A stretch of DNA of 64,000 nt, from assembly GCA_000091205.1 (NCBI GenBank), contig AP006501.2; one strand, 5' to 3'. Below the pieces are notes generated by a model. The model ran no database searches. It worked only from the letters and a program-made list of their open reading frames with translations, and had not been told where the DNA came from. The position numbers and the translations under genes were made by a program. Source of the DNA: Cyanidioschyzon merolae (lineage: Eukaryota). Numbering within the stretch: position 1 is the first letter of the stretch; each line of letters begins with the position of its first letter. This document shows, piece by piece, positions 16,601 through 44,336 of this stretch.

Positions 16601-16849
16601 ATACGGCACGGGTAAACGGTAGTGATCCAGCACGCTCTTGAAAGCGTATGCCAAGAGCACGGCTAGGATCGGAAACAATAGGATCATAAACGTTGACGGG
16701 GTCCATTCGGTGAACCCGTGACATATTGCAAAGATTTCCTCACCTACAGGGTCTGTTTCTGCTGCGGAGGCCGCCAGGTTTGTTCGAACGAGGGTAGCGG
16801 GCCCACGCAGCAGGTCGCTTTCGCTCGGGCACCAAGCACTCGTGTTCAT
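10655..16849 (-). CDS. Giant (2064 aa) SLC9C-type cation/proton antiporter. Order: N-terminal Na+/H+ exchanger TM domain, disordered linker, voltage-sensor-like S4 helix, cyclic-nucleotide-binding domain, then a ~850-aa low-complexity tail
   Basis: N-terminus (aa ~50-470, nt ~15440-16700) has NHE/CPA1 hallmarks: ISPTDVLAV, VMIQGESLFNDGSGFTLFVLF, multiple TM helices. Aa ~935-960 read GRFRFLHRFARWLIYRRLF, with Arg at every third position as in an S4 helix. Aa ~1085-1200 (nt ~13250-13600) read LLDQLDMRREALQRV ... FAHGEVVQRMDTLVVGVFYVIRGAIEV, which resembles a CNBD beta-roll. Single 6.2-kb ORF. Confidence 0.8.
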   Translation of the reverse strand: MNTSAWCPSESDLLRGPATLVRTNLAASAAETDPVGEEIFAICHGFTEWTPSTFMILLFPILAVLLAYAFKSVLDHYRLPVPYTFPLVIAGGIFGVAGCYLNLAQLSASLNYWVDVRNPEVLFYVLLPPLILESALFIDWWTVSNLLLQIFALSMILVVIDAALLAFFTTYVLTDSPWSLNAGWMFGALISPTDVLAVNMALEGSGIRTPLQVMIQGESLFNDGSGFTLFVLFLTRLQPNASQSIGAIFVQLLRLAGGGLALGIAFALPTLVFLRRVWKDAAIEIGSTFVLSYLVFYVGESPCGVSGIVAVASFGLVLRADRFASLTPEFQDSLLAFWSVISMIINAIAFTYAGFIAVVNLIVFWGRHGIDGKTIAYGLVLYPVLYLSRLIAVVVLYPVLRRSRYGLTWREALLIVHVGLRGAISLIAAQIVFHEPNIQGGTYVNARVQLWTATIVLMTLMVQAPTIKTVAGWLGLLNRSAAQVRTFRAQVRRLHAKALDILLDMQRTSRFTFADWVFVGQVAILPAELSRLLLRVGQVRALVSKATRTPVLMSEHPDSISIASDTNKVMGVSSSSDMEERLPPQKPDEAHWTASAAGPELMDTNSNPSNSITPGTSDTSTNPKSTGNLVTMPAPGSTARSTMGSTFGSSFGNAAGNTMNSAFGNNSGNSAGNTILATATATTAAAAATATSAAWRTSDGTMPGVSARLQGSLPRSSSLPQLVVARPPRVSLAVPRASVEYRMSGSQALRERHSREMQRLSRSLQLERQHQVAKARNRWLPQRPWWLRLDRKQPRTGRSRRMTAAAAGARPRSVRWTTATTNIGPERSAVERSSILQRRRRQQQQHSRRYRRPPATAVFLHQLNESRRRALLAMRAAVQKQFLIGSMSMTPYRLLNAAIDRSMDEVSNPTNTDEIRVFSHTQAGGWGLSRLEQFIVGICGRFRFLHRFARWLIYRRLFIGYDIVSGLTVALVHALHSRHAQQAERWALEKAERSPPGAATIAADTAAVVMVHSTDWVSADPHGSLTLIADLQVAIELEAEVARCESYLHSSRVLSPETVRASDSLHAANVLLSRQARLIEELYATGTLTEAESKALLDQLDMRREALQRVSIRFPLPTIGDCLRNSLASWLEVEYRSRVALEHALEQLLAAWRAAGQIRAFAHGEVVQRMDTLVVGVFYVIRGAIEVRTQHVEFAGDDLDDLDEQLLLQRQDMQAVDHQARHGTLGRHNGLRSSYPAVQRTPVDRIQRQSAMIANLLSEEEFPPLRRKPTTTSVWPQAVETAETGSAAPLAGVVAPASSERSTEAPLTLPSHLGQERERKSTLWRRWRWWQRRQPEETAATPRDMVEPPYPGEEAVPSATLPSRRRAAEARLRAFISDVFGIAGRRERDDRYTSNSNVVDDDDDDFADDGTIAADAEEVVWHAASAEAGAFPHGLRDAAPSSGALNHEHKHIPPDLEASAPASGFPREDAHEVRTLSNSVTGQSYGMAGSLYRYTSALELVVVSQLAHVFFIPASNFRNLMSSRDDWMRLAVRMAASECARNLVPNVEEYLTETRMRFMELERRDRPSTERQPERSSTSVQSPADDAETPPESNGLAAARTDTLGADNAAPESAQVTRPGTRAHVETRDTSSRLPDASFAMYENPGTVATETMLFPPEALDYEKRRDAMLLPLRTATLVVWAMPRLLPGTLSGPLHGQCIARRLRSAVVILLQGTVYLQTCDGEGARQLQHARPLCKRYGCLGQYQSELHAPCETLPVRCRVLVVTPSDTPLFFDTKAQERGEAGLYDEQRAENEALWSLLHSTAAANPAAAQTVSSGGLRWHPPDPNLITVAESEGASSGTLLRRRVDAPALIRLDVAPALPRSVAPETNAARTGTTGEASLLSDANSRSLSMGRLGQASIRVPKRLASPLDLYSGERKLSSRAKQASASAEQFTLVWFDPADPRIHDLVAAFGVGPGGVSDPLFEDSLRSRPLSRFPAEDSITSVETNAETARVASEAPRTAEREQSASFVSSGPVRLATFPSEGHVALDTGDANTFASSSSESTPDLSADVRLMADRHLLS

Positions 16850-19137: not shown

Positions 19138-22100
19138 CTAGAACATGTGTTCCCGTGCCATGAGCTCTGCATCCCGCTCTAGCTGACGCCGATCCGGTGT
19201 ATTCGATTCAAGTACTTCAGAAGCTGGATCCGTGACCGCAGGGATGCTCCCTGCATCTTGTTCTGCAGAGAGGAAGGACGACGAGCCTTCCAGGACGGTG
19301 TCCGATACGCTGCGATGTGTCTCCCGCAGGTCTCTGGTCTGCCAAGGCGGTGCTTGGCCCGTGCTCCCCCCGCGGTACACCACCGGAGTGCCAGTTGCAG
19401 ATTCCTCGAATAGCAGTTGCAGGCCTGTATCCTCAACAGGATTGGCGACCTCTTCACTGTAGTTCGCTAGGATATCGACCAGTTCGGATCGAGAACGTCG
19501 CGGTGGGCGAGTATGTCGGTGTCGCCAGAGCTGCTGCTCAAGTTCCGTTTCCGTTTCCGTTCGGTGTTTCTGCTCGAATTGACGCATCCAAGGGCCAGCA
19601 ATGGATCCAGCATGCCCTCTGGTCTGTTCCGAACGTTCCCGGTCAGCAGACTCGGACGGAAACGTTTCGGTTAGAGAGACCATTCCGGACGGCAGCGTCC
19701 AGCTGCGTAAAAGCCCAGGACGCGTGCCACTTTCGCCAGCCGCTTGTCCGATAAAGCGCTCACCACTGCTGCCATCTGAACAGGTAGGATGCAGCGCATC
19801 CGTCCCAGCGCACATGATATCAGCGGGAACAGTGTTTCCGGGCTGGTCTACTTCACTCGGTTTCGAGATACGCGAGGTGTCGCTCATGGGTGCCGTCGTC
19901 GTCGAAAGTCGCTGTGCTCCTCTCCCGCGCCGACTGCTGACCCGCTCACGAGCCGCAGCCAAACGTTGTAACCGTAATGCACTCTGTACAAGGCGCTTTC
20001 GCTCCTTTTGGAGAAGAGGCTGGTTCAAATCCATCCACAGGAAACAGGGAGAAGTGGCGGTTTTCGATACAGCCGAAGCAACTGCATCGTTTCTGTCTGA
20101 AGCGGCAGCAGCAAAGAGCGCAACATCCTCACAGGGGCGAGCGCAACTCGCAGCGAAATGGTCCAGGCGAAGTACTGCTGGTGCGGAGACTCGACCCGCC
20201 CAGGTTTGCCACTCAGAAAGCGGTGACGGAGCATCGCCGCTGAGACTGCTCCTGTTGCCACCGCTATCGGTGATTTTGCCAGTCCCTGTACTGCCGTTTC
20301 CGTCGCTGCTGGTGCTACCAGGTCGTAACCGCTGCTGCGGCAGGGTTGCGTCATTTGCCTGGTGTAACGCCACTGAAGCAACGGACGCTTTCTCGTGATT
20401 GCTCAGAAACTGCAAAAGTGAAGGAATCGCGGCACCACGCAAAACAAGAAGCTTCGCAGGGGGCATTCCATCCGGCAACAAGAGCCAACGTCTCGGTTTT
20501 GTGTCTACTCGACGCGACGCATCCGCGCTCCGTATACCGCCAGCAGGCTGGACATCTGCTTCCCCTGTTACGGCGCTTTCGTGTTCGCGCTCAGCAGCGG
20601 GAGACGCTGACCCGCGCTCAACACCAGTACCTGTTTGGGAACTCGCTGTCGGCATCAGTGGCGCTCGATATCGCTGGAGCCACGGCCCCGCAGGTGTATC
20701 TGAGCCAGTCTCAGGAACGAACGCATCCTGCAGGATCTGGGCACCGTAAGCACTGGTGGGACGAATCTCCAGCGTTCCCGTAAGGAGTATCAGAATAAGG
20801 GACGGGGTTGCAGGTTCCAGCAACGGCACGTTCACAGCGCAGATGCCCTCGTGCACATGATAGACGCGTTCGTAGAGGCCGTACCAAGCCAGTGCACCCG
20901 TTACGTATACCTGATAGCGCAGGTTTGCTCGATCATCAGTGGAGCGTGAAGCGTCCAGCCACCACGGTGCTGCCTGATCCGAACGCTGCAGATAATCATA
21001 CATCGTGAACGAGTCCTGACGTGGTGGAAGCAGAGGTCTTCGTGTTGGGCGCGCTGCGGCACTGTGCGAACCTGCTTCAGTGGATGCTCCGGTTTCTGGG
21101 CGCTCTCCAAGCACCAGCGGTTGACGATCTACCAACGTTGTCGGAGCGGGTGTTGTTGGTTCGGGTCTCGTGGGCGCCCTGGTATCCAGCGGTACGCCAG
21201 ATGCAGCCAATGGCGTCGTGGCTATTGCGGCATTACCGCCGGCGCTTTTCGAAGGTATCCCCGCAGCTGCCGTCGTCGTCATCGTGACAAGTGCGGCTGC
21301 TCGTTGTTCAGACTCGGTTAAGGCTGCATTCCGGAGTGACAGCTCTGGACAAGTAACCGACTCTGCCATGTGTTCAGAATGTGGCCGTTGCAGCGCATGA
21401 AGGCTGTTTCCGTTACCGTCTTCCGTAACTGCAATCTGGTAGAGTTCAGAGAAGAACGTCTCCAGGCCCGGGATAAGGGCATCCACGAGCTCCGCGGCGC
21501 CTAGTCGGAGCGCCTCTTGCCACCAACCTCGCTCACTGCTCACCAGTTGCTGAAACGCTTGACGAGGAATAAGAAGCACGTTGGCCACCGGACTGGCAAC
21601 CACGAGCTCGTAGGGGTACCGGTGCGCAAATAGGACGCCACCGACACCATGCACATTGCGCAGAGGATCATCGTGACGAAGGAGCGACACCACCTCGTAT
21701 TCTGGGAGAGGGAGCAGGCCCTCCGCAGCTGTGCACTGCGAAGGCGAGGTGGCAAGCGTCAGACGCTCTTGTTCGGGCGCTGCAGCCGACCAGGAAGACG
21801 CAACGAGCAGGGCACCAGGTGTCGCATCGAGCACAGCGGACTCGGTTTCGAGCGCTTCACCTTCCAGTGCATCTTCACCTTCATCATCATCCCATTCTAC
21901 GAGGTCCGTTCCAGGGCGCATCGCCGACGGCGGTGTGCCAGTCGCGCAACGTGCTGTGCTCGAACGCGACTGGTGTGCCCCAGTGTTGCGATGATCCCCA
22001 CAATGATTACGATTATTGCTGCTGATGTTGTTGTTGTTAGTCCAGGTTCGATTCGATCGCATGGCATCCGCCCGACGGCAGGCAGCGCCCTCGCGCTTGC

Positions 22101-25100
22101 CATCAGTGACACCCGAAGCATCTTTCCCATCTCCGCTGATCCAGTCATGCGGAGCAACGGTGAGCGCTTCACTGGACGTTCCTGGAACAGCATGTTCAGC
22201 ATCCCGGGAAGCAGGCTCAAACAAACGCGCGGGAAGCTGTTTTTGTTGGGCATCACGTTGCTCGCCATCTCCTTGAGATGACTGACGACGACGACCACGG
22301 AGACGCTCCCACCAGGGCCACCTCCTCCTCCACCAACGCTGCTTCTGATGATGTTGTTGTTGTTCCTGCTGCTGCTGCTGCTGCTGCTGCCACCACCGGC
22401 GAAGGCCACTAGTGGCCGGGGCACCGTCCGGCACTTGTCTCGCAGCGTCCGCTGCAGGTGCTTTTGCAACGAGCACACCAGTCGCCGAGTCCGTAGCGAG
22501 TTCACCAGTAAAGGTGGCTGCGGCAACCGCCAAGCGCTCCGACGTTGCCCGGAGCGCCTCTTCCGCCTGGTGTTGGTCTCTGCTGATGAGGCGAGCAATC
22601 GCCTGTGTCATTGGCATGTCGATCGCTGTACCGCTCGGGGAGAGCAAGCATGTCGTCGCTTCAGTGCATGTCGACTGCTGCTCTTCGTGGACATGACACG
22701 GCGCAGTGTCTCTGCATCGGGTGCATACCGGAGATACGGCAGGTAGCGCGCTTGTCGGCTGCGCTGCCTCCAGGTCCGGCTCGGAGAGCACCAGGTGAGG
22801 CGCTGGGCCCGGGTGCGCGCTGCGTCGCTGCTGTGAATGCCTCCTAGAGTGCGTCTCCGGTGCCTGGCGCTGCTGCGGAGGATACGATACCGCTGTGCGT
22901 GGTCGTCCAAAGCCAAGGGGAAGGCGTGCTCGCCCTGACGCTATATGCTGCGTACGGCTCCAGTACCAGCGGAGCTCTAGAACACCGTGTGCTACGAGAA
23001 TCACCGCATCTGGTAGCTGAAAACTCGCCTGGAGACGCTCGCCTAGCAGTAACGAGCGCACATGGCCAGCCTGGCGAAAAGCGACATAGAGGCGATACGC
23101 CTGCGCAGAGGCGGAGTTCAGACCACCATCCAGAAGCCTTTCGGTTATCGATGTTGACGTTGTTGCTGCTGTTGCTGCTGCTGCTGGAGCACTCGTTTGG
23201 ACGCTCGTCGCTCCCGCTGGTGCGAAGGATGCGCCTGTAGTGGTGGTGGTGGTGGTGGTGGTTTTCGGGGTGCCCCCTGCTGACGACGACGCTGTCGCTA
23301 GCACAGGTTTGGATCCTGGCGACTGCGTCTCGTGGAACATTGGTGCCGCGGGCTGGAACCAGCGCCGAATACCAGCCTCAATGCGCTTCTCAAACGACGG
23401 AGCCGGAAATCGCACAGAAACTCGCTGCAGAGCCTCTCGCCGCATATCAATCTGGTCCAAAAGACCTCGAAACTCGCGTTTGGTCAGGAGACCCTCCGCG
23501 TACATGATTTCCAGGAGACGCTCCTGTCGACTGAGCATTACTGCGGCTGCTCGCAACGACTCCACAGAGCGTACCGTTTCGAGGCTGAGGATTCGCATCG
23601 AACGAAGATGCTGCTCGCAGCGCTGTAGATCGTGCTCCAGCTCTTGCAAGACTTGCGCATTCGCATGCAGAATCATGGTGAGCAAAAGCACCGCTCGCGG
23701 ATGAGGTTCACTTTTCTCATGTCGAAGCAGGGAATGGAGTGCTCGCATGCATTCGGAATAACGGCTCCGCCAGGCTTGGGCGAGCGCTACCGCCAGTCCC
23801 GACAGCACGTCATAGCCAACAAACAGACGACGGTGAAGCAGTGCCAGAGCCAGTCGATCGAGAAAGCGCACCCTACCCAAGACGTGTATGGCGAGGCGCT
23901 CGTAGCGACGCAAGCCCCAGCCGGCTTTCTGACTGCCCTCACAGAGGCGCAGCGTACCGGTGTGCGGCGCCAGGCATACCTTATCGTTGACGTAGTCGGT
24001 TACTGAGTCGAGGAGGCGGTACGTGACACGACTAATCGACCCAATGAGGTGCTGTTTCTGCACGTTCGCACGCACAGCAAGCAGCGTGCGCCGGCGACTC
24101 TCCATGAGGAGGCGACTGAACGCCGGGGAGTCCCCGAGCTTGCGCTCGAGAGGGAAACGCGTTAGCCAGTGCGCTAGACTTGGAAGCGACTCTTCGGGAA
24201 GGGGCTCTGGCTCTGGAGTTCGGACTGCCCTTGCAGGATTTCCTGTATCCGGCACTGGTCCCGGAGGCAATGATGAGACGCGAGATGCCCCAGTTGCCGT
24301 CTTGTCGGGTGCAGGAGTGCCAGCAGCATCGGGCTGACGTAGACGCGCCTTCCAGATGGCTTCGGCATTCGACCACGGTACCGGAGCGCTGCTGCTTGTC
24401 GTACCGGAGTTCGCGTCATCTCCAGGATCCAGAGACGACGACTCGGGAGAACGGGACGCACAGTCTGGCTCACGCGGCCCAGTTGGTGGCGTGGCTTGTC
24501 CTGGGGGCGCCACTCCGTAGCCGGGCGCCTGCTCCCCGTTCAAGCTCGCTGGAGGATCGTTCCCGGCAGCGGCCTTCGTGTAGCGCGCTGCCAAGTGCCG
24601 AATACGGGCGCGCACCCGCCCTGCACTTAACAGCAGCTCATCGAGTTTGTAAGGTAGAATGGCAGCCTCTTCCACGAATCCCCAATTTGCGTGAACGAAG
24701 CGACTGTGCTTCTGCATCTCCCGCAGCGCCTCTTTGGCTTGCCGGTGAAGACGGCGTACCTGGAGTCGAAACAGTCGCACTTCAGCGGCACTCTGGCTGA
24801 GGAGGCCCAGCCAGGCAGCGACCTGCCTCACTGTCGTTCCCTGGAACAACAGAGTCAGGAGTACGATCATCGAGGTCCACAGCTGAACCCGAGCAGATAC
24901 CACTGTACTACCGCGAATGGAAGGCGTATGGAAGACAATCTGGGCGGCAATGAGAGAGATGGCTCCGCGTAGGCCACAGTGAACGATGAGGATGGCCTCT
25001 CGCCACGAGGCCCCGTAACGACCAGTGCGCAGAATAGGAAACAGCGCCACCACCGCCACAACACGACAGAGGTAAGTGACAGGATAGAGCGCTACTCCGT

Positions 25101-26208
25101 AGCCAATTGCCGCGGCGTTCACGCCACTCTTTCCCCAGAAAACAATGAGGTTGACCACGGAGATAAAGCCAGCGTACACAAATGCAATCGAATTGATGAT
25201 ATGCGATATCGCTTCCCAGAATGCATCCAGAGACTCTTGAAATGCCGGTGTGATCGAAGCGATTCGGTCAGCGGAGAACATCACGCCGAACACGGACACA
25301 GCCACAATGCCGCTGCAGCCGCAGGGCCCGTCTGCAACGTAGAACACCAGATACGCCATAACGAGTGTACTGCCGATCTCGATGGCAGCATCTCGCCAGA
25401 CGAGGCGAAGCAGCAGCAACGTCGGGATGCCCATCGCGATACCGATGAGGAAACCGCCACCTGCAAGACGGAAGAACTGCTCTACAAGGTAGCCAAAGGA
25501 GAGATTCGGATTCGGCATCAGACGAGAGAGGAAGACAATGAAGAGAGTGAATCCGGAACCGTCATTGAAAAGCGCCTCGCCCTGGATCATGACCTGGATA
25601 TGCTTCCGCACCGGCGTTTGGGAAAGCGTAAGCGCAACCGCAAGTGCATCCGTTGGCGAAATGAGCGCCCCAAAGAGCCAGCCAGCATCGAAGCTCCAAC
25701 CGGCTGTACCGAACACGTACGTGGTGAATGCCGCCACAATCGCCGCCGAAATGAAAACCAAGATAATGCTTAGCGCGAATTGATGGGGAATGGTATGTTT
25801 CACGACCCACCAGTCAAGATACATGGCGCTCTCGAAGAGAATCGGCGGGAACAGGATGTAGTACAGGATCGTCGGTTTGTCGACGCTTACCCATAGCCGC
25901 AGTGACTCTGACAATTCACCCAGAGGTAGGTAACAACCAGCGACCCCGAAAACACCGCCAAGAATGACAAGCGGAACGGTATACGGTAAGGTCAGTCGGT
26001 ATCGAATGAAAAGGCCGCGAATGATGTACGAGAAGAGCACTGCCAGGAGTGGAAACAGCAGTACCGTGAAAAGCGACGGTGTTCCGGTACGAAAGCCGCG
26101 GCAGGTATTGAATATGGCTGCATCCTCGCTGGTGCTATTCGCGGCGTGAATCACTTGTGTTTGAAGTGCGGTGAGCTTCGAAGCCAACCCCTCAAACGAC
26201 GTATGCAT
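19138..26208 (-). CDS. Giant (2356 aa) paralogue of the upstream SLC9C-type exchanger: NHE TM domain, S4-like helix, CNBD with a poly-Thr insertion, and a long low-complexity tail with poly-Q
   Basis: Collinear with ORF 10655..16849: ISPTDALAV, VMIQGEALFNDGSGFTLFIVF, GRVRFLDRLALALLHRRLF (S4-like), LLDQIDMRREALQRVSVRF, then LPDAVILVAHGVLEL after a T9 run. TM-region identity to paralogue 1 is roughly 70-75% by eye. Confidence 0.8.
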   Translation of the reverse strand: MHTSFEGLASKLTALQTQVIHAANSTSEDAAIFNTCRGFRTGTPSLFTVLLFPLLAVLFSYIIRGLFIRYRLTLPYTVPLVILGGVFGVAGCYLPLGELSESLRLWVSVDKPTILYYILFPPILFESAMYLDWWVVKHTIPHQFALSIILVFISAAIVAAFTTYVFGTAGWSFDAGWLFGALISPTDALAVALTLSQTPVRKHIQVMIQGEALFNDGSGFTLFIVFLSRLMPNPNLSFGYLVEQFFRLAGGGFLIGIAMGIPTLLLLRLVWRDAAIEIGSTLVMAYLVFYVADGPCGCSGIVAVSVFGVMFSADRIASITPAFQESLDAFWEAISHIINSIAFVYAGFISVVNLIVFWGKSGVNAAAIGYGVALYPVTYLCRVVAVVALFPILRTGRYGASWREAILIVHCGLRGAISLIAAQIVFHTPSIRGSTVVSARVQLWTSMIVLLTLLFQGTTVRQVAAWLGLLSQSAAEVRLFRLQVRRLHRQAKEALREMQKHSRFVHANWGFVEEAAILPYKLDELLLSAGRVRARIRHLAARYTKAAAGNDPPASLNGEQAPGYGVAPPGQATPPTGPREPDCASRSPESSSLDPGDDANSGTTSSSAPVPWSNAEAIWKARLRQPDAAGTPAPDKTATGASRVSSLPPGPVPDTGNPARAVRTPEPEPLPEESLPSLAHWLTRFPLERKLGDSPAFSRLLMESRRRTLLAVRANVQKQHLIGSISRVTYRLLDSVTDYVNDKVCLAPHTGTLRLCEGSQKAGWGLRRYERLAIHVLGRVRFLDRLALALLHRRLFVGYDVLSGLAVALAQAWRSRYSECMRALHSLLRHEKSEPHPRAVLLLTMILHANAQVLQELEHDLQRCEQHLRSMRILSLETVRSVESLRAAAVMLSRQERLLEIMYAEGLLTKREFRGLLDQIDMRREALQRVSVRFPAPSFEKRIEAGIRRWFQPAAPMFHETQSPGSKPVLATASSSAGGTPKTTTTTTTTTGASFAPAGATSVQTSAPAAAATAATTSTSITERLLDGGLNSASAQAYRLYVAFRQAGHVRSLLLGERLQASFQLPDAVILVAHGVLELRWYWSRTQHIASGRARLPLGFGRPRTAVSYPPQQRQAPETHSRRHSQQRRSAHPGPAPHLVLSEPDLEAAQPTSALPAVSPVCTRCRDTAPCHVHEEQQSTCTEATTCLLSPSGTAIDMPMTQAIARLISRDQHQAEEALRATSERLAVAAATFTGELATDSATGVLVAKAPAADAARQVPDGAPATSGLRRWWQQQQQQQQEQQQHHQKQRWWRRRWPWWERLRGRRRQSSQGDGEQRDAQQKQLPARLFEPASRDAEHAVPGTSSEALTVAPHDWISGDGKDASGVTDGKREGAACRRADAMRSNRTWTNNNNISSNNRNHCGDHRNTGAHQSRSSTARCATGTPPSAMRPGTDLVEWDDDEGEDALEGEALETESAVLDATPGALLVASSWSAAAPEQERLTLATSPSQCTAAEGLLPLPEYEVVSLLRHDDPLRNVHGVGGVLFAHRYPYELVVASPVANVLLIPRQAFQQLVSSERGWWQEALRLGAAELVDALIPGLETFFSELYQIAVTEDGNGNSLHALQRPHSEHMAESVTCPELSLRNAALTESEQRAAALVTMTTTAAAGIPSKSAGGNAAIATTPLAASGVPLDTRAPTRPEPTTPAPTTLVDRQPLVLGERPETGASTEAGSHSAAARPTRRPLLPPRQDSFTMYDYLQRSDQAAPWWLDASRSTDDRANLRYQVYVTGALAWYGLYERVYHVHEGICAVNVPLLEPATPSLILILLTGTLEIRPTSAYGAQILQDAFVPETGSDTPAGPWLQRYRAPLMPTASSQTGTGVERGSASPAAEREHESAVTGEADVQPAGGIRSADASRRVDTKPRRWLLLPDGMPPAKLLVLRGAAIPSLLQFLSNHEKASVASVALHQANDATLPQQRLRPGSTSSDGNGSTGTGKITDSGGNRSSLSGDAPSPLSEWQTWAGRVSAPAVLRLDHFAASCARPCEDVALFAAAASDRNDAVASAVSKTATSPCFLWMDLNQPLLQKERKRLVQSALRLQRLAAARERVSSRRGRGAQRLSTTTAPMSDTSRISKPSEVDQPGNTVPADIMCAGTDALHPTCSDGSSGERFIGQAAGESGTRPGLLRSWTLPSGMVSLTETFPSESADRERSEQTRGHAGSIAGPWMRQFEQKHRTETETELEQQLWRHRHTRPPRRSRSELVDILANYSEEVANPVEDTGLQLLFEESATGTPVVYRGGSTGQAPPWQTRDLRETHRSVSDTVLEGSSSFLSAEQDAGSIPAVTDPASEVLESNTPDRRQLERDAELMAREHMF

Positions 26209-34809: not shown

Positions 34810-36312
34810 TCACACGTCCAAAACATGAAGGTTACCGGTAACCACGCAGTTCTCGAGCCGAGACCCCGCCGGAATATCAATAGACGCTCCCGGCTGGGCG
34901 ACAATGATGACCGTACCGCTCAGTTTGCAGCGTTTGCCGAAGCGCACACTGCCACTGACAGTTAATGACTCTAATTCTAAAATATCCGGCATACTCTCGA
35001 AACGGCTACTAAAGTCGCTCACTTTTTTGAATTCTGGACCCAACCGAATGACTGGCGTGCCGAGTTCAGCCGGACGCTCCGGATTCATACTAACATACCC
35101 CGAGACGATATTATAGAGATTACTTTGAATCAAGAGCAGATCGGATGTTGTCTTGACGGGCAGGAAACGGCTCCGTGGAACGTTAATACCCATGACGCGC
35201 TGGAAATGGGTAATGGCAGCACCCATAGCCGTCTCGAGCTGCAGCACGGTTTCGCCTTTCACAGTCTTCGTGTTGGGGATAATATCCAGCTCCATGGAGC
35301 CAGGTCCTCTGTCCATGATTCGCTTGAGCGCCTTGAGTTGGATCCACAAACTATTGGTATTGAATACTCGGAATTTGGATATGTTCTGGAAATCTCCCAA
35401 GTGCTCCTTATCGACCTGCGCGACTTCTAGCAACCTCGGCTTGCCTTGGTACGTGATCAGCGTGCCTCCTTTCCGATCGGAGCGAGTTCTCGTTGCCATT
35501 TCGATTGTAAATTCAACCTGATGATCCGCGATTGCTTTGAGAATCCGCGTATCCAAGGACGCTCCAAGGTTGTCACTGTTACTCACGAATATCCATTCCT
35601 TGCCCTCGGCGAGCAGCCGATCCAGCATGCCCGATTGCAGAAGCGCATCATACATGTCGCCGTGACCCGGCGGGTACCAGTCCTCCTTGTCGTACACTTC
35701 AGAGTCGAGGCACAGGGGTCGCAGTGTGTCGCGCACCAGACGCGGATACCTAGACTGCTGAAACGTACGAATCGGAATGAGATCCTCGTACTTTCGAATG
35801 ACTTTCAGTGTATCCGCATCCGTGTTAAAACTATTCATTAGGAGAAGAGGCACCTTGATTTGATACCGCTTGTTGATGGACTCGATCTGCTTCACGATAA
35901 TGTCCAAAAACGTCTGTCCCGAGCGGATTTCGATCACGGACTTGGGGCCCGAGCACCCCATCGAGGTGCCGAGGCCTCCGTTCAGCTTCAGTACAGCGAC
36001 GCGGCTTAGAAGCGCTCGCGCCTCAGTTTCGTTCGGTTCGGGTAGTTCTGCGTAGGGTCGCAATAGCTCCGCCGATGGCGGCTGGATCTGGTCCCAATCC
36101 AGTGCCGCGGACGCACTGGAGCGCGTCTCCAGGTACCGACCCAACAGGTGCACAAAACCCTGTTGTTCTGCTTCGCTCATGCGTGCACGTACGTCAGTCG
36201 CCCTTTCATTGATTTGACGTATTTCCTCCAACAGTGCCTTCTCCAGAGACTTGTCTGTGAGGTGAGCGAAGTTCGCAAAAGAGGCATCGTGGCTGGTTCG
36301 CACCAAAGGCAT
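34810..36312 (-). CDS. UGP: UTP-glucose-1-phosphate uridylyltransferase (UDP-glucose pyrophosphorylase), 500 aa, complete
   Basis: LKLNGGLGTSMGCSGPKSVIEIRSGQTFLDIIVKQIE, NSDNLGA, and the C-terminal left-handed beta-helix region. Collinear with eukaryotic UGPase throughout. Confidence 0.9.
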   Translation of the reverse strand: MPLVRTSHDASFANFAHLTDKSLEKALLEEIRQINERATDVRARMSEAEQQGFVHLLGRYLETRSSASAALDWDQIQPPSAELLRPYAELPEPNETEARALLSRVAVLKLNGGLGTSMGCSGPKSVIEIRSGQTFLDIIVKQIESINKRYQIKVPLLLMNSFNTDADTLKVIRKYEDLIPIRTFQQSRYPRLVRDTLRPLCLDSEVYDKEDWYPPGHGDMYDALLQSGMLDRLLAEGKEWIFVSNSDNLGASLDTRILKAIADHQVEFTIEMATRTRSDRKGGTLITYQGKPRLLEVAQVDKEHLGDFQNISKFRVFNTNSLWIQLKALKRIMDRGPGSMELDIIPNTKTVKGETVLQLETAMGAAITHFQRVMGINVPRSRFLPVKTTSDLLLIQSNLYNIVSGYVSMNPERPAELGTPVIRLGPEFKKVSDFSSRFESMPDILELESLTVSGSVRFGKRCKLSGTVIIVAQPGASIDIPAGSRLENCVVTGNLHVLDV

Positions 36313-37634: not shown

Positions 37635-40600
37635 CTACGGGTCAAAGCCCAGGGCCTTGCGATATGCAGCCTCCTCGCGCCAGGTGAGGCGATCACGGAC
37701 CCAGTCGCCGCTGGAAGTGCGACGTCGATATCTCGGACGATTTGTCCCGCCGCCGAAGATATCGACCAGGTCGCAGGTATGGACGCGGGGAAATATGGTG
37801 TCTGGATCGACACGCGTTTGCTCGATTAATGCTCCATAGAGACGATGGCTCCGCGCCCATTCCGGTATGAGGTGCCGCTTAGCAGCGGGCACCGCAGCGC
37901 TCTCATCATCCGAGGCATCCGCCGAGTGGTGTCGCTCCGGAGTCAGCGGGTACTCCGCGGGAGCCTCGTCCGCGGCGGCAGCAGCAGCAGCAGCAGCAGC
38001 GGCAGCAGCTATCTGGGACGCTGGCTTTGTCCCATGCGACTTGAGCAGACCACTCGCTACGACCTGTTGTTGACGGAGCGGCGCAAGACGTGCCTGCTGG
38101 CGCTCGGTCTCCAGTGCGAGCCTTCTTTGATGCTCCAAAATGCGGCGTCGTTTCTCCTCGCGCCGTTGGCGGTATGCGTCCTGGACATCGAGGGGCGCCT
38201 CTGCATCCACGGGAGCTTGCCTTGGAGATGGATTCCCGTTGAGATCGACCAGGGGCTTCACTGCTGTGCGCGAAGGCGTCGCTGAGACAGGCGTAAGCGA
38301 CGTCGTGTCCACTGCTGTGGGTTGTTTCAGCGAAGCTGGGACGCAGTTCGGCGAGGCGCGCTGATCCATCCGACTCTTGAGCGTCTCGGGGCTGGGCGAA
38401 GCCCCGCGCACGCGCTTGCTCGATTGAGGCATTGTGGCTATGACGATCCGGTAACGAGACGGGCTGCTCCTTGCGTGCCCCAGCGTTGCCCATGCTTTGT
38501 TTGGTGACGGTTTCAGCACCGAATTTGTGCCGGTGGCTTGCAGCTCAGTGGCGTTCTGCAGCGGTTCTACTTGCATGCGCGCTGGTGAATGCGTCTGACG
38601 AGTGGAAACCGCTCCAGCGGAAATTGTAGCGGATGCGGTGGCGACGGCAGCGTTCCCCGGCAGACCATAGCCGCTGACATCCTGCTCCAGCGGAGGCGAT
38701 GGCGCAGCTCTCGACGTGGAGCGCCCGGTGCGATGGCGATCCTCGCACATTTCGTGCTGGACCGTCGAGCTTCGGTCGCCGGCAGCTCCCACAGCTTCGA
38801 TCCGACTGGGACTGGGGCACACCGGGAGCGCTCCAGCACGCATCGCGCGCAACCGCTCGATGCGCGTGCGCAGGGCCTCGGTTCTCGAGAGCCTGCTAGA
38901 AACACCGCCAGGAGCACCGCCAGGTCCCGGCTGGCGCTCACCACCAGGCGCAGCTGCAGCGTAGAGGGTATGGTGCGGCATGGGCGTTCCACTGGCGTGC
39001 GCTGGTGGCATGATCGTTTCGTCTACCGCTGCGGGAGCGCGCTTCGGGTCTGCAAGTCGCAGTGCGTGAGCGTCGTAGCCGTCGTATGCGACGCTGGTTG
39101 ACGCTGCCGGCGCCCTACGAACGGAAAGCAGCATCTCCGTCGCAGTTTGCGAGCGCTCGAGCGCATGGAACGACCCGTCTATCGCGTTCGTGGCGTCAGA
39201 TGGACTGCGCGATCGTGAGCGTCTCGCTTGCTGGTCACTTGCACCAGCTGCACTCAATGGCGAGCGAGGACGGCTGGGCCTCGCTAGTTTGGCGTTGGCA
39301 GTCGTCGCCTGGCCGGAATCCGGTACCAGCGACGCTGCCGCTGCCGCTGCCGCTGCTGATGGCGCTAGTTCGACCGGCGCCGCGCAGCTCGGCATCGCTA
39401 CCGAACTGGAGTCGCTCGCCACAGCGGGTTGCTGTGCCGCGTCCGCCGCGCAGTCCGGGTTCCCGACTCGCCCATTCGCTGCATCCTGGCCACATGACCC
39501 AGCTCGGATCGCATCCGCGTTTTCCGCAAGTGCGCCGTTGTCGTCGCTCGGTACTGTGGCCAATTTTGGGTCGCATTCGAGCGTCTGTTCCAGTTGGAAA
39601 ATCTGGCCTTCAATGTCGGTCGCATTCACGAACGAGCCGGGGCCGGATGCGGTTGGCGAAGCGCAGCGCGCGCGATAAACCTGTTCTGGGCTCGCAACCG
39701 AGTCGATTGGCGCCATCGCGAACGCGGCAACTGGCCGATGCGCTGGCGCAGGTGACGCGGACCCACGGCCCGGGTGCATTGTATGCCGCCCGGGGCTCAG
39801 TGAAGCCGAACGCTCGCGTGTACCCTTCATCTGCGCTTGAGATGCCGTCACGCCCTCCATTGTGTAGGCGCTGTTCTCGGGCAGAGCGCTGGACGTGCCC
39901 AGCTGGCGCATCGCCGCCGACGCTTGCGCATCAACAGCCGAAGCTTCCGTGGTAGCATTGCCACTGGCACTCAGGGCATGCTGCGCTCGCGCGAAGGTTG
40001 GCAGCGGCAATGGCGTTATCGGCGCGACAGCTCCTCGATGCACAGACGATCGGCGTCGTGCCCGAACCGTCTCTGTGGCATTCTCCGTGGAAAACGATTC
40101 AGCATGGTCGCTCGGGTGGCATTCGGCGGCGAAGTCGCTGCAGGTGACGCTGCCGGCACGCTGGGCGCCATTCGTCAAGGCCATCATTGTGCGGATCGCC
40201 TCTGGCGCCGCAACCTTTTGGGGTTCGTTGTATTCGAGCTGTGCGCTGTTCCGCTCTGGATCCACTAACGACCGCCGCATTGGCGGTGATTGCGAAAGCA
40301 TTGCGGAGCTACGTCGATTCGGTGCTGTTCGATGCACCGGAGACGATAGATGCGATGCCGGGGTACGCAGTGAGCGCTCCTTGGTCTGGGAGCACGCTGC
40401 CGGTGTTCGGGGCAGGGCCTCATCGCCCGCTTCGGCAGCGTTCATCCGCGGCGAATGCCCTGAAGCGTTATCAAAAGCTGGGCGCGTTGCGAGAGACCCT
40501 GGAGTATGCCACTCGTTGCCAGCAGGGGCCTGTAGCGAAGCCTGAACACCCCTGATGGTCTCTGTGGCAACGTCTTGGCCGGGATTTGTCACAGTGCAAT

Positions 40601-43600
40601 GTGTGCGACTGTTCGCATCGATAGTGACTGATGCGCGCGACATCATCTGGCTCGGCGACATGGTGCCTGACCCTGAGCGATGCTTACGAATCGAGTCAGA
40701 TGGCACATTAGCCGCAAAGCGCGTCTCCTGCAAAGACGCTGCACGGCGTCTGCTGGACATCGATGGCGATACACCGGTTTTTGGTGTCGGCGCTGGCGAC
40801 GCCCTTATCGACATTCGTTGCCATCGCGCTCTATCTGCGATATTCTCGGTGACGTTTTGGAGGCTGGACCGCGGAGCTGCACCACCCCCAGACGCTGCTC
40901 TGGATTCGGCTGGGATTTCGCAACTGCTCGCCACGGTCCCGGTGACTTGCTCGAGCGATGACCTCACTCCTGGACACCGTTCACCCACATCTGGTGCCAT
41001 TCCATCGACGTCGTTCTCGGATGGGGCGTGTTGCGGACTAAAGCGCAGCGCGGCAGGCAACTGACCCTGAATGCACCAAGAGAGAGGGTTCAGTGGTGAA
41101 TCAGCAGCGCTGGGCGATGGCGACTGCGCTGCTGCAGGCTGTTCAGCGGCAGGTGCGGGCATCGATTCGCAGCGAAACGCAGATGACGGATCAGTAGCCA
41201 GAGGTATGCTCGCGGCCTCCGTGCGCATAGCTGTGTCCTCGTCCGCGATGCCATTATCATGCGGTTGTCGCGGTGATGGCGGCGAGACGTCCCCGAGCAC
41301 CAACGAGCGCGTCGGAAGATGCTTGGGGCAGGGACTGCATGCCTCGACTGCTGCCCCGCTGGATGGAATATCGCCGCGCGGCGGCGTCCATTGCCTGTGA
41401 TGCATATCGCTTGGCGGCGTTTCCGACACTGCTGCAGCTTTTTGCGATACGAACGATGATCCGTGAACAGCTAGCCTGGCGCTTTCGACCCGAGGCGTCG
41501 TTGGCGTCGTACTGGGCCCAGGCAGGCGCAGCGCATCGGCCGCTGCGGCTCCAGAGGGATCCACAGATGTCGATTCCGCGGGCGCGAAATTTTCGCCTTG
41601 CGGGTCGCTCAGGGCCGCGGGCGAAGCTGCCAATGCTGCAGCTGGACAAGCACTGGATGTCCCTGAGCCATGTACGGGGTCTGAAGCGGCCTCCGCAGGG
41701 TCCTGCTTCACCAAAGCCGCCGCCGCCGCCGCCGCCGCCAAATCGATACGGGCTTGGCTCGTCGACGGTCGACGTTCTGGATGCGACTCTGAATGTGCAG
41801 CAGATGTCGAGGCCGGGTGATGCACATCGTACCGCGGCGAAGGCAGCGCTTTGCTGGCACTCCCTGCAGCCGATGCCGAATCGTCGGCTTGCGCGGACGT
41901 CCAGTTTGAATGAATCTCTCCAGCAGTGGACGGCTCTATGGGCACCGGCTCCTGCTCGGTTGCTGCTTGCTTCTGATGTATTCCAGCTGACGCATGGGGC
42001 GCATCCGCCGCTCCGTTTCGTGTTCGAATGATGCACGGGCTCGTGAACGAAACGTTGTGCGCATCGCGAATTTGCACTCGAGTCTGAAGCCCTGGCAGGG
42101 CTCCATTGAGACTTTCCGATATTGCCACCGGAAGCGAGGGACGCGATCGATTGCATAGGCGGGCGCTTTTTTCAGGCAGCGAAGCGCTTCGCCTGTTATT
42201 CGCGCCTCGGCCCTGATCCGGTGATATGGTGTCTGGAGCCCTCGATGTTGCGCGCCGAGCACCATGCATCGACTGCTGCCGCTCCGCTCGTTTCGACGAC
42301 GCTGTTCTTGGCGATGCCATGCCTCTGGATACCGGCGGTAGGGACGTGTTCTGCAGAGCGTCTTGGGGACGGCGCCGACGCCGTCGTGTTCGGGTCGGCA
42401 TTCGCTCGGGACTAGCGGGCGCTAGGCGCTTGATTACCGACGACTCCCGCGCTGCTTTGTCCGCACCAGAGCGTGACCTGGACGGCGGCGCCTGCCGTTG
42501 ACGGCGTCTCGGCATTGGCGCTCGCGGTGCTCGTCGCGTTTGCTCTGGAGTGCTCTGGCCCAGCGATATGTTCGTCATGGGCGTCATTCTGCTCGTGTTG
42601 GGTTGGTCGACAGCTGCGCTCAGGTTAGGAGCGCTTGGCGCGCACTTTTCGCAGAACCAATCCTTCTGGGGCACCTGGTCCAGCGGCGGCCTACAGCAGT
42701 ACGTGTGGAAACAGTCATCGCATCGATCACATAGAAGCATCAGATGGGGGTCCTCCATGCCCTTGCATCGTCGGCAGTACGTCTCGTCCTTGTGCGGGGT
42801 TCGATTCTCCGCCTTGGCCCGTGAGAACGGCGACAGTAGCTCTAGGGCCAATGCCCGCGCACGATCTGCAGTGCTTTGCTGATGCCGTCGAGCAGTCGCA
42901 CGGGGTGCTCGTGTGGCGAGGTCGTTCGCGTGCGTCTCAGACGATGGCGCTACTCGAGCCAGACCAGAATCTCGCCGTTTTTTCGGTCGCAACGGTACAG
43001 CGGATGCACCTGAGTCTGCCTCTGCTCCATCAGCGGCACATGTGGAAGAGGGTCGTGAGAAGCGCGCGCTTCCAACGCGCTGCACGGGCGACGCGCGGGC
43101 ACCATGTAAGGCCGGTGCTGCTGCATTTAGCACCGCATCGCGCTTAGGTGAAACGGGTTGCGCTTCCTGCTCAGATGCGTGCTGTGGCGGAGCACGCTTT
43201 CGTTGCACGCGTGACCTTTTGGTGGCTTGCGAGGTGCGACCGGCTGTCTCTCTCGTTGATCGCCCGCAGGCGATACTGAGCGCATCCGTTTCCGCTGGTG
43301 CTGCCCTTTCGGCTGCCTGTATCGAGGGTGACCGGTGAGAGCGGCGGTCTTGGCGCTGTGCGCGCTCTCTTATGCCTCGTCGCTGGTTCGTTTGACGCTG
43401 CCCTGCGTTGGAGGCAGGCGATCCAAGCGGCGACTCTGGCGGTGCAGGTGTGCGCTGCTGTTCTCGGGTGCCAGCGTAACGCTCCGATGGAATGTTGGGG
43501 CGCTCGTCTTGCATGAGCTGTTGATCATTGTTCTCGTCGTGGAACGCGAACTGATCGGATTCTGCTGCAGCGGCACGTTCCAACGATGACGACGACGGCA

Positions 43601-44336
43601 GTGGCGACTGGGCGCCAGACCTGATCGGGTCTGGCTCTTTTCGTGGCGCGTTCAGTACGACCGGTATCTGGGAATTTTGTCTAGAGTCATTGGTTTTGCG
43701 CTCGTGTAGTGCAGTGAGACGACGGCGTCGGCGCGCGCGAGCGTCCAGCATCATGCTCTTTCGCGATGCCGCGGGCGGCCGCACAAGGCCTACGAGCGAA
43801 TGCCGCGGGTCCCAGGTCTTCCATCCCTGGCCGGGTGGCCTCGTGCCCGGTGCGACTGACTCGCACATGCTTGAGATGCTGTGGCTTTCAGCACGACGGA
43901 AGAGCGAGCCGTGTGAGCTGGTGTCTCGACAATCGTCGGACGGAGCAGCAATTGAGGGTGTTTCGCGACTTGGACCTCGACAGCCATCGGATGATTCACT
44001 TGCTGGCAAATGATATGACGCCGCTACCTTGAAGCGTTGCGGTTCTGCTGGCGATGCAGCGGCACTGGCGACGTTGTTCGTGTCGGGCATTGTGGTGTTC
44101 CCCAGCGAGTCAATGGCGTGATCAAGCGCGCTTCTTGCCGCCGCCGCCGCCGCCTCGTGACTGCTAGTCGGAATCTCTGGCAACCTTGTCGCACACGCGC
44201 GAATCGTCCGTTGGAACCGAACGATTTGTGCTTCATATTCGCCCAGTAGAACAGCCTGCTGTTGCTCTGCAATGTAGTGGAGCGCATGAATGGCGTCCAA
44301 AACTGTCCGCTTTCGAAAAGCGTCGCGCGTAGACAT
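37635..44336 (-). CDS. INCENP: Giant (2233 aa) INCENP-like chromosomal-passenger protein with an internal PHD finger and a C-terminal IN-box. Mostly disordered, Ala/Ser/Pro/Arg-rich
   Basis: C-terminus IPEWARSHRLYGALIEQTRVDPDTIFPRVHTCDLVDIFGGGTNRPRYRRRTSSGDWV matches the INCENP IN-box that binds Aurora B (human: IPSWA...VDVDQVFG...[21 protein letters not shown]). It is preceded by a charged single-alpha-helix stretch (RQRREEKRRRILEHQRRLALETERQQARL). PHD finger C4HC3 at aa ~521-566: CRRCKGMEDPHLMLLCDRCDDCFHTYCCRPPLDQVPQKDWFCEKC. Confidence 0.75.
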   Translation of the reverse strand: MSTRDAFRKRTVLDAIHALHYIAEQQQAVLLGEYEAQIVRFQRTIRACATRLPEIPTSSHEAAAAAARSALDHAIDSLGNTTMPDTNNVASAAASPAEPQRFKVAASYHLPASESSDGCRGPSRETPSIAAPSDDCRDTSSHGSLFRRAESHSISSMCESVAPGTRPPGQGWKTWDPRHSLVGLVRPPAASRKSMMLDARARRRRRLTALHERKTNDSRQNSQIPVVLNAPRKEPDPIRSGAQSPLPSSSSLERAAAAESDQFAFHDENNDQQLMQDERPNIPSERYAGTREQQRTPAPPESPLGSPASNAGQRQTNQRRGIRERAQRQDRRSHRSPSIQAAERAAPAETDALSIACGRSTRETAGRTSQATKRSRVQRKRAPPQHASEQEAQPVSPKRDAVLNAAAPALHGARASPVQRVGSARFSRPSSTCAADGAEADSGASAVPLRPKKRRDSGLARVAPSSETHANDLATRAPRATARRHQQSTADRARALALELLSPFSRAKAENRTPHKDETYCRRCKGMEDPHLMLLCDRCDDCFHTYCCRPPLDQVPQKDWFCEKCAPSAPNLSAAVDQPNTSRMTPMTNISLGQSTPEQTRRAPRAPMPRRRQRQAPPSRSRSGADKAARESSVIKRLAPASPERMPTRTRRRRRRPQDALQNTSLPPVSRGMASPRTASSKRAERQQSMHGARRATSRAPDTISPDQGRGANNRRSASLPEKSARLCNRSRPSLPVAISESLNGALPGLQTRVQIRDAHNVSFTSPCIIRTRNGAADAPHASAGIHQKQAATEQEPVPIEPSTAGEIHSNWTSAQADDSASAAGSASKALPSPRYDVHHPASTSAAHSESHPERRPSTSQARIDLAAAAAAAALVKQDPAEAASDPVHGSGTSSACPAAALAASPAALSDPQGENFAPAESTSVDPSGAAAADALRLPGPSTTPTTPRVESARLAVHGSSFVSQKAAAVSETPPSDMHHRQWTPPRGDIPSSGAAVEACSPCPKHLPTRSLVLGDVSPPSPRQPHDNGIADEDTAMRTEAASIPLATDPSSAFRCESMPAPAAEQPAAAQSPSPSAADSPLNPLSWCIQGQLPAALRFSPQHAPSENDVDGMAPDVGERCPGVRSSLEQVTGTVASSCEIPAESRAASGGGAAPRSSLQNVTENIADRARWQRMSIRASPAPTPKTGVSPSMSSRRRAASLQETRFAANVPSDSIRKHRSGSGTMSPSQMMSRASVTIDANSRTHCTVTNPGQDVATETIRGVQASLQAPAGNEWHTPGSLATRPAFDNASGHSPRMNAAEAGDEALPRTPAACSQTKERSLRTPASHLSSPVHRTAPNRRSSAMLSQSPPMRRSLVDPERNSAQLEYNEPQKVAAPEAIRTMMALTNGAQRAGSVTCSDFAAECHPSDHAESFSTENATETVRARRRSSVHRGAVAPITPLPLPTFARAQHALSASGNATTEASAVDAQASAAMRQLGTSSALPENSAYTMEGVTASQAQMKGTRERSASLSPGRHTMHPGRGSASPAPAHRPVAAFAMAPIDSVASPEQVYRARCASPTASGPGSFVNATDIEGQIFQLEQTLECDPKLATVPSDDNGALAENADAIRAGSCGQDAANGRVGNPDCAADAAQQPAVASDSSSVAMPSCAAPVELAPSAAAAAAAASLVPDSGQATTANAKLARPSRPRSPLSAAGASDQQARRSRSRSPSDATNAIDGSFHALERSQTATEMLLSVRRAPAASTSVAYDGYDAHALRLADPKRAPAAVDETIMPPAHASGTPMPHHTLYAAAAPGGERQPGPGGAPGGVSSRLSRTEALRTRIERLRAMRAGALPVCPSPSRIEAVGAAGDRSSTVQHEMCEDRHRTGRSTSRAAPSPPLEQDVSGYGLPGNAAVATASATISAGAVSTRQTHSPARMQVEPLQNATELQATGTNSVLKPSPNKAWATLGHARSSPSRYRIVIATMPQSSKRVRGASPSPETLKSRMDQRASPNCVPASLKQPTAVDTTSLTPVSATPSRTAVKPLVDLNGNPSPRQAPVDAEAPLDVQDAYRQRREEKRRRILEHQRRLALETERQQARLAPLRQQQVVASGLLKSHGTKPASQIAAAAAAAAAAAAADEAPAEYPLTPERHHSADASDDESAAVPAAKRHLIPEWARSHRLYGALIEQTRVDPDTIFPRVHTCDLVDIFGGGTNRPRYRRRTSSGDWVRDRLTWREEAAYRKALGFDP
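37638..37880 (-). other. IN-box (Aurora-kinase-binding) module at the extreme C-terminus of the INCENP-like ORF
   Basis: RPRYRRRTSSGDW with upstream DIFGG and IPEWA motifs, in the canonical order and spacing. Confidence 0.75.
42640..42778 (-). other. PHD zinc-finger module inside the INCENP-like ORF
   Basis: Cys4-His-Cys3 spacing read directly from the minus-strand translation. Confidence 0.8.

Follow-up and report, generated by a model that had tools for sequence, protein, structure and literature searches.

A PHD finger within an INCENP-type scaffold protein of Cyanidioschyzon merolae and related cyanidiophytes, predicted to bind the unmodified histone H3 tail

How the chromosomal passenger complex (CPC) finds chromatin where its Survivin subunit carries neither a BIR nor an FHA reader is a question left open by comparative work (PMC9680938). 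It is raised again by a gene in the stretch of DNA analysed here (hereafter the window), which comprises 64,000 nucleotides of contig AP006501.2 from the Cyanidioschyzon merolae 10D assembly GCA_000091205.1. An initial annotation, made from the letters alone, had described an open reading frame (ORF) at 37635–44336 as encoding an INCENP-like passenger protein into which a PHD finger is fused. We therefore asked whether the two parts belong to one gene, what the PHD finger might read, and whether it takes the place of the N-terminal helix that binds Survivin and Borealin. We conclude with high confidence that the protein is an INCENP orthologue whose PHD is real, conserved and part of the same polypeptide.

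The IN-box reported at the extreme C-terminus was confirmed by profile and by alignment to PDB entries. INCENP_ARK-bind (PF03941) matches aa 2140–2194 with 42.5 bits (cut-off 22, E=6e-11), the IN-boxes of all orthologues score 42–60 bits against the same model, and the C-terminal 120 residues can be aligned with the IN-box of human INCENP in its complex with Aurora B (4af3_D, E=1.7e-5). The register of the C. merolae and human proteins (PDB 4af3, 6gr8, 9si3) is IPEWA/IPTWA, DIF/DIF and RRRTSSGDW/HKRTSSAVW, in which the Trp, the Phe and the TSS are assigned the roles established for human INCENP. As family membership suggests, this segment would bind and activate Aurora, with the TSS motif as the usual feedback phosphorylation site. 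The charged single alpha-helix (SAH) said to precede the IN-box is likewise present, but it extends over only ~40 aa in C. merolae, where it is 60–63% identical to its counterpart on a metagenomic contig (L002); the equivalent in Galdieria is ~115 aa long and rich in E, K and R.

The PHD finger is complete and lies in the same polypeptide as this INCENP-type scaffold, as had been proposed. Pfam PHD (PF00628) matches aa 521–565 with 37.2 bits (cut-off 24, E=3e-9), and none of the eight C4HC3 zinc ligands varies among six orthologues or among the 24 PHDs that were aligned. Further residues of the segment are also invariant, namely L53, L55, L56, D58, D61, D62, P71, V76, P77, D80 and W81 in alignment numbering.

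The ORF coordinates given by the initial annotation proved exact. The frame opens with an ATG, runs through 2233 codons with zero internal stops and is preceded by in-frame stops at 3 and 9 codons upstream of the ATG. Because the remaining five frames of the same 6.7 kb contain 36–58 stops each, and because the probability of meeting no stop in 2233 codons is ~e^-62 given the base composition, the ORF has not arisen by chance. Introns are almost absent from C. merolae. The exact 2233-aa product was not found in a collection of 15 billion proteins, in which the product of the neighbouring C. merolae 10D gene is present under a GenBank accession.

The same fusion is found in other genomes. On contig L002, PHD and IN-box lie together in a frame of 2202 codons without a stop (protein of 2173 aa), and an environmental variant of 2229 aa (P0168) is 98.5% identical to the window protein over its full length. 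The newer annotation of Cyanidiococcus yangmingshanensis (KAK4533119.1) gives a protein of 2211 aa, again with PHD and IN-box. An older Cyanidiococcus model (P0001, KAF6000731.1, assembly GCA_013995675.1) has 1449 aa and a PHD without an IN-box. At this Cyanidiococcus locus (L001) an IN-box lies 2 kb downstream of the model, on the same strand and split over two frames, and the gap between the two is occupied by overlapping ORFs in shifting frames. The model is thus short and devoid of an IN-box because of several frameshifts (indel errors) within this gene in the older assembly (L001 14350–16640). Separate genes for the two parts, a possibility raised together with the initial annotation, are ruled out by this downstream IN-box and by the full-length KAK4533119.1. 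PHD and IN-box are one gene: several independent genomes, and a second genus as well, preserve the fusion as a single ORF.

A real ORF might nevertheless yield two proteins, through an internal promoter or start or by proteolysis, so that the PHD and IN-box parts would act separately. Short metagenome contigs do carry 932-aa gene models that start at the internal Met 1298, and the older Cyanidiococcus annotation ends at 1449 aa; the former are probably cut by the contig end, since these contigs measure only 3.7–3.8 kb, and the latter is the product of the assembly frameshifts. Moreover, frame continuity over ~6.6 kb is kept in species whose proteins are ~30% identical, and a compact version occurs in four Galdieria proteins. 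We consider separate action of the two parts most improbable and continue with a single polypeptide.

What the PHD finger reads may be judged from its nearest relatives. The best PDB sequence matches are BAZ2B (1.4e-12), ATXR5 (1.7e-12), KDM5B PHD1 (5e-12) and UHRF1 (1e-11), with further matches to KDM5A PHD1, BAZ2A and CHD4, and no H3K4me3 cage-type reader was found among the 60 best PDB sequence matches. The finger aligns free of gaps with those of BAZ2B, KDM5 PHD1 and BAZ1A, and with one one-residue insertion relative to the UHRF1-type sequence. The position two residues before the zinc-binding His, which we take to be that of the cage Trp as in the BPTF and ING/ING2 structures, is held by Cys in the Cyanidioschyzon types and by Ala in Galdieria (DDCFH / DDAYH). 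The CDxCDD motif (D58, D61, D62) is invariant in the orthologues, and so is the beta-strand LLLCD, which pairs with H3 in bona fide readers; the acidic residues of the motif presumably correspond to UHRF1 D334/D337, which contact H3R2/K4.

Structural modelling led to the same relatives. For aa 480–585, the AlphaFold2 model built from a 6-sequence alignment (predicted local distance difference test, pLDDT, of 53) was set aside and a 24-sequence alignment was used, for which the PHD core reached a pLDDT of ~90. The model superposes on the ATXR5-H3 complex with 0.8 Å over 48 columns, on UHRF1-H3 with 0.8 Å and on BAZ2A with unmodified H3K4 with 1.3 Å. Foldseek comparison with the PDB returned a probability of 1.00 and a root-mean-square deviation of 0.8–1.4 Å to the PHDs of ATXR5, UHRF1 and BAZ2A/B, and the top structural neighbours are the same set as the sequence matches, several of them solved with unmodified H3. 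Since every one of the nearest sequences and structures is a reader of the unmodified H3 tail, CDxCDD is kept and the cage Trp is absent, the PHD falls into that class. Of the two subtypes between which the initial annotation had wished to choose, the finger thus resembles, in its sequence and in its model, unmodified-tail readers and not H3K4me3 readers, and H3 binding is predicted.

Immediately before the PHD lies an N-terminal extension that occurs in no other PHD of the 24-sequence alignment. Across six orthologues from two genera, twelve of its residues (L, S, P, S, A, A, R, P, K, E, T, Y) do not vary, and the consensus LSP[FY]S[RK]A.A..R[ST]P.K.ETY is nearly invariant across Cyanidioschyzon, Cyanidiococcus and Galdieria. 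The extension is modelled as helical with a moderate pLDDT (~73–79). Regular-expression matching places in it an SP site and a full cyclin-dependent kinase (CDK) consensus site abutting the first zinc ligand, which reads TPHK in C. merolae and SPTK in Galdieria.

Such an invariant extension might be an intramolecular or partner interface. It would suit a different reading of the finger, in which the ligand is a non-histone protein whose free N-terminus, or an internal segment, mimics that of H3 (PAF15 and Stella play this part for the UHRF1 PHD), or in which the PHD is purely structural; the UHRF1 PHD with PAF15 and Stella peptides is indeed among the nearest structural neighbours. The zinc ligands, the acidic residues of CDxCDD and the LLLCD strand are nevertheless invariant, as in true H3 readers, and no candidate non-histone ligand is known. 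We regard this explanation as quite improbable and retain the H3 tail as the predicted ligand.

The initial annotation implied that the PHD might replace the N-terminal Survivin/Borealin-binding helix. This does not hold, as the helix is kept and, in the orthologues, is homologous to the N-termini of algal and diatom INCENPs. It is 46–50% identical among three Cyanidioschyzon-type orthologues that share the same start Met (50% between C. merolae and Cyanidiococcus). An iterated search of the IN-box proteins together with reversed decoys, seeded with the N-terminus of the Rhodosorus INCENP (and, in a shorter run, that of Porphyridium), converged on helices at residues ~1–60 in all but one protein and included zero reversed decoys. 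The resulting family comprises red algae, Mesostigma, Trebouxia, diatoms, all four Galdieria proteins and Cyanidiococcus, with E-values of 1e-11 to 1e-13 for Galdieria, 0.0017 for Cyanidiococcus (before its own inclusion) and 0.007 for the L002 protein. Because the conserved N-helix is retained, the PHD is an addition and not a replacement. By position and analogy, the algal N-helices would be the counterpart of the human CEN-box.

Another alternative is that the protein is a chromatin factor that recruits Aurora through a borrowed IN-box, the true INCENP being encoded elsewhere. It would agree with this that the C. merolae N-helix, taken alone, has no significant similarity to any INCENP N-terminus. 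However, several INCENP-specific features besides the IN-box are present in canonical order, and the top matches contained no further Cyanidioschyzon-like IN-box protein, a weak point because the search carried no taxon labels. We give this alternative very little credence and keep to an INCENP orthologue with an added PHD.

To see how widely this architecture is spread, 1.84 billion representative proteins were searched with an IN-box profile, which gave 1082 IN-box proteins at E<=1e-3; the best 150 of these representatives (91 of them of at least 300 aa) were screened for PHDs by regular expression and with a custom PHD hidden Markov model (HMM). Within these 150, the proteins found to have a PHD were those of the Cyanidioschyzon/Cyanidiococcus group and Galdieria partita GJQ13227.1 alone. 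The G. partita query recovered G. sulphuraria, G. phlegrea and one Galdieria-like protein from the Joint Genome Institute; the four Galdieria proteins (1090–1137 aa) carry PF00628 and PF03941 in the same order as C. merolae. In two red algae outside the cyanidiophytes, Porphyridium purpureum (INCENP of 1854 aa) and Rhodosorus marinus (878 aa), the IN-box was found without a PHD. These sequences are most simply read as a PHD gained once, by insertion, on the stem of the cyanidiophytes. It should be noted that NCBI and UniProt list the G. sulphuraria orthologue (P0174) as 'DNA binding / methyl-CpG binding protein isoform 1'; it has no MBD match, and the name is apparently a mis-transfer from the similarity of the PHD to BAZ2-type proteins.

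Outside the Cyanidioschyzon group, the long IN-box protein that matches best is one of 930 aa (P0017); only a fragment of 231 aa (P0016) scores slightly higher. P0017 is encoded at L003 8001–10793 (Logan assembly SRR23274491) by a gene without introns, and this INCENP has a long charged helix and a tail after the TSS motif but no PHD. The idea that it represents a PHD-less cyanidiophyte paralogue was rejected. The L003 locus, from a compact genome with a GC content of 45%, has no PHD in any frame, and P0017 ranks high because the post-TSS tail is widely shared but lost in Galdieria. This tail, DRLTWxEExxYKxxMGF, lies outside the Pfam IN-box model and is common to the INCENPs of Porphyridium, Rhodosorus, Mesostigma, Trebouxia and the diatom-type SAP-bearing proteins; we know of no function described for it.

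The SAP-bearing proteins are themselves INCENPs with an accessory domain. A SAP domain after the N-helix was detected by HMM in 27 of the 149 best IN-box representatives, where an initial regular expression had found nothing, and was confirmed by Pfam in eight. The set includes P0126, P0137, P0106, P0070, P0030, P0047, P0102, P0148 and 19 others, some of them labelled as diatoms (Proboscia, as Proboscia alata, and Epithemia); a literature search found no description of a SAP-bearing INCENP. From their sequences, accessory chromatin- or DNA-binding domains seem to have arisen on INCENP more than once, so the cyanidiophyte PHD is a less isolated case and the general idea becomes more credible.

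Taken together, we propose that in the common ancestor of the Cyanidiophyceae a PHD with its conserved N-terminal extension was inserted after the N-terminal module of INCENP, ahead of its long disordered linker. Judging from its position and from its homology to algal INCENP N-termini, the N-helix would bundle with Borealin and the Survivin homologue. The PHD, if it behaves as its class does, would grip the free N-terminus of H3 when K4 (and R2) is unmethylated; most likely the CPC would thereby gain a second, direct tether to nucleosomes, and Aurora would be set beside its H3-tail substrates. The invariant S/T-P-x-K site beside the PHD would be a plausible CDK switch between chromatin engagement and release. 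A reader for H3T3ph was added as a BIR in animals and fungi and as an FHA in plants and stramenopiles, and the Survivin/BORI homologues of red algae are helix-only, without a BIR or FHA reader (PMC9680938). Because red-algal Survivin is reported to be helix-only, INCENP may supply the chromatin reading, and a PHD on INCENP may thus compensate. We consider this working model as a whole, a CPC scaffold with an added PHD as second nucleosome tether, to be moderately probable, and we give even chances to its mechanistic core, the tethering of the H3 tail by a PHD of this subclass. The reader logic of INCENP in cyanidiophytes probably differs from that of other lineages, with an unmodified tail rather than a phospho-mark as the feature that is read.

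A PHD of this class binds H3 residues ~1–4, near the Aurora sites on the same tail, and could instead couple reader to writer. It would then present Aurora with its H3-tail substrates (H3S10, S28) or gate the kinase, and the N-helix bundle would position the complex; since the N-helix is retained, a localisation module already exists. The disordered spacer between PHD and IN-box (~1600 residues in C. merolae, ~780 in Galdieria) nevertheless implies no fixed geometry, and presentation of substrates and simple tethering are inseparable on these data. Such coupling appears unlikely to us, and the second nucleosome tether remains the preferred function. A more far-reaching proposal is that histone reading by the CPC has moved from Survivin to INCENP in the Cyanidiophyceae, a CDK-switched PHD being the main chromatin-targeting module and using the unmodified (or variant) H3 tail instead of Haspin H3T3ph. 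We hold this only tentatively and think it rather doubtful; literature searches found no statement on Haspin in C. merolae.

Several observations weigh against the model. A PHD of the H3K4me0 type implies no obvious centromere specificity. The initial annotation had suggested an alternative or additional route of centromere targeting; the PHD is indeed additional, but centromere targeting specifically is not indicated because this class of finger suits general or H3K4-unmethylated chromatin binding. Phosphorylation of H3T3 may even expel the PHD, by analogy with AIRE PHD1, a finger of the unmodified-tail class whose binding is abolished by this modification (PMC2685098), and this would be the opposite of what Survivin does. 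Other points concern the N-helix. The C. merolae helix is in register with the algal family over aa 12–52 with E=1.5, which is not significant alone, and the invariant Trp (then Leu) of the family is replaced in C. merolae: the region aa 37–41 reads AAWLRK in Cyanidiococcus, IVRFQR in C. merolae 10D and TTCLRK in L002, so that the Borealin/Survivin interface may be drifting in the genus Cyanidioschyzon. A profile check of the N-terminus for a CEN-box, as advised at the outset, gave a divided answer. Pfam INCENP_N had no match in the whole protein at E<=1 or in four N-termini at E<=10, whereas the helices of the orthologues join the algal/diatom family. INCENP was not recovered from the PDB with a profile of cyanidiophyte N-helices, nor was human INCENP with one built from 13 algal and diatom N-helices. 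Residues 1–70 of human INCENP (an approximate query sequence) ranked 412 of 1523 against shuffles, and a joint Cyanidioschyzon and Galdieria N-terminal profile, which was misaligned, gave no matches. Finally, the taxonomic restriction of the PHD rests on the best 150 of 1082 IN-box proteins, and PHD-bearing INCENPs elsewhere are possible.

The remainder of the protein is mostly disordered, as the initial annotation held. Of all residues, 48% are A, S, R or P and 65% are disorder-promoting, order-promoting residues peak mainly within conserved blocks, and ~15% of the protein length is conserved between species. The window and L002 proteins are 31% identical overall, with six conserved islands amid a fast-evolving linker (Table 1). 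The second of these has the core WDPRHSLVGLVRPP...RRRRRL and is 83% identical to L002 over aa 181–210; Galdieria has LGLLCPPSTKKKR at the same relative position, and only by inference from the sequence may a function be ascribed to this motif. The region of the ALRTRIERLR motif (aa 1801–1830) is 57% identical to L002, and a [SA]ALRxRIxxLR motif is shared by three of the four Galdieria proteins, the INCENP of Porphyridium and three further IN-box proteins that carry no label. The modules recur in Galdieria in unchanged order but compressed, with LGLLCPPSTKKK after the N-helix, then LSPYSRAIAQGRSPTKYETYC-PHD, AELRSKIQRLR (a motif of this type being matched in three of the four proteins), the long E/K/R helix and the IN-box.

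Table 1. Features of the INCENP-PHD gene and its product (aa, amino acids of the product; positions are those of the window).
Feature	aa	Position	Strand	Basis or sequence
Whole gene, PHD-containing INCENP orthologue, C. merolae 10D	1-2233	37635..44336	(-)	intron-less ORF, 2233 aa + stop codon
N-terminal amphipathic helix, candidate for the CPC three-helix bundle (CEN-box-type)	1-55	44172..44336	(-)	orthologue conservation
Conserved linear motif + basic cluster	170-212	43701..43829	(-)	WDPRHSLVGLVRPPAASRK...ARARRRRRL
Pre-PHD extension	495-520	42777..42854	(-)	LELLSPFSRAKAENRTPHKDETY
PHD finger, C4HC3, BAZ2/KDM5-PHD1-type spacing	521-566	42639..42776	(-)	Pfam, PDB matches, AlphaFold2
Short helix motif	1811-1832	38841..38906	(-)	SRTEALRTRIERLRAM
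Short charged helix (SAH or coiled-coil-like)	2049-2092	38061..38192	(-)	RQRREEKRRRILEHQRRLALETERQQARL
IN-box with TSS motif, predicted Aurora-binding/activating segment	2140-2213	37698..37919	(-)	Pfam PF03941 + PDB alignment
Post-TSS tail	2214-2233	37638..37697	(-)	RDRLTWREEAAYRKALGFDP
Conserved islands, window versus L002	1-55, 170-212, 485-570, 1801-1830, 2041-2100, 2131-2233			

The surroundings of the gene are conserved as well. The adjoining 500-aa ORF (34813–36312, minus strand) is an exact match to the UTP-glucose-1-phosphate uridylyltransferase BAM82780.1 of C. merolae 10D; a kinetoplastid origin, which the long ORFs without introns had suggested, was rejected on this match and because Cyanidiococcus supplied the sole close homologue. 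The gene order TauE, CCT-motif gene, INCENP-PHD gene, UTP-glucose-1-phosphate uridylyltransferase and ZIP is identical in the window, L001 and L002. Elsewhere in the window, two giant proteins of 2064 and 2356 aa are encoded in tandem on the minus strand (10655–16849 and 19138–26208); a Na+/H+ exchanger domain occupies their first ~470 residues only, the other 1600–1900 residues being without a Pfam match, and L002 has a similar gene of 2055 aa at the equivalent place.

INCENP and the PHD finger are each well known; their combination and its conservation throughout a clade are new. Full-text literature searches found no description of a PHD-bearing INCENP or of any INCENP in Cyanidioschyzon or Galdieria, and in databases these proteins are labelled as hypothetical, as 'PHD-type domain-containing' or, wrongly, as 'methyl-CpG binding'. 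A whole class of red algae would thus have a predicted histone-tail reader built into INCENP. If the PHD targets the complex, the coupling of CPC to chromatin would be more plastic than the Haspin-H3T3ph-Survivin model implies, and an unmodified-tail reader, not a phospho-reader, would serve a mitotic kinase. Together with the SAP-bearing diatom-type INCENPs, such a case would carry 'differential domain acquisition' beyond Survivin to the scaffold itself; if the PHD is dispensable, a clean correction of the annotation is still gained. As a haploid alga with few introns in which genes can be targeted, C. merolae allows a direct test of the idea.

Compared with known INCENPs (human INCENP, yeast Sli15/Pic1 and Arabidopsis WYRD), the protein shares the C-terminal IN-box with its W, F and TSS positions, the charged helix before it, a long disordered middle rich in SP/TP sites and, at the very N-terminus, a conserved helix that is a candidate counterpart of theirs, with a basic motif behind it. 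It departs from them in the PHD and extension placed between the N-terminal module and the linker, which no other INCENP among the best 150 of 1082 has, in the very short charged helix of C. merolae and in its unusual length (2233 aa). As in Survivin with its BIR and in the plant and stramenopile BORI with its FHA (Komaki et al. 2022, PMC9680938), a CPC subunit bears a lineage-specific module for the H3 tail, here a predicted one. The cyanidiophyte domain, however, sits on INCENP and is a PHD rather than a BIR or FHA, and by its class it should prefer the unmodified tail over H3T3ph, so the logic may be inverted.

The finger itself has the same ligand spacing as the PHDs of BAZ2A/BAZ2B, KDM5A/B (PHD1), UHRF1, ATXR5 and CHD4, along with LLLCDxCDD and PPL..VP..DWFC, and is 42–49% identical to the BAZ2A/B, UHRF1 and ATXR5 structures over 47–48 aligned columns. 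Unlike these PHDs, it carries the invariant N-terminal extension and an extra Cys after the sixth ligand, and its host is a mitotic kinase scaffold instead of a remodeller, demethylase or ligase. The diatom-type SAP-domain INCENPs offer a parallel in layout, since they too have a nucleic-acid- or chromatin-binding module just past the N-helix; there it is a SAP domain for DNA, here a PHD for the histone tail, acquired independently in another lineage.

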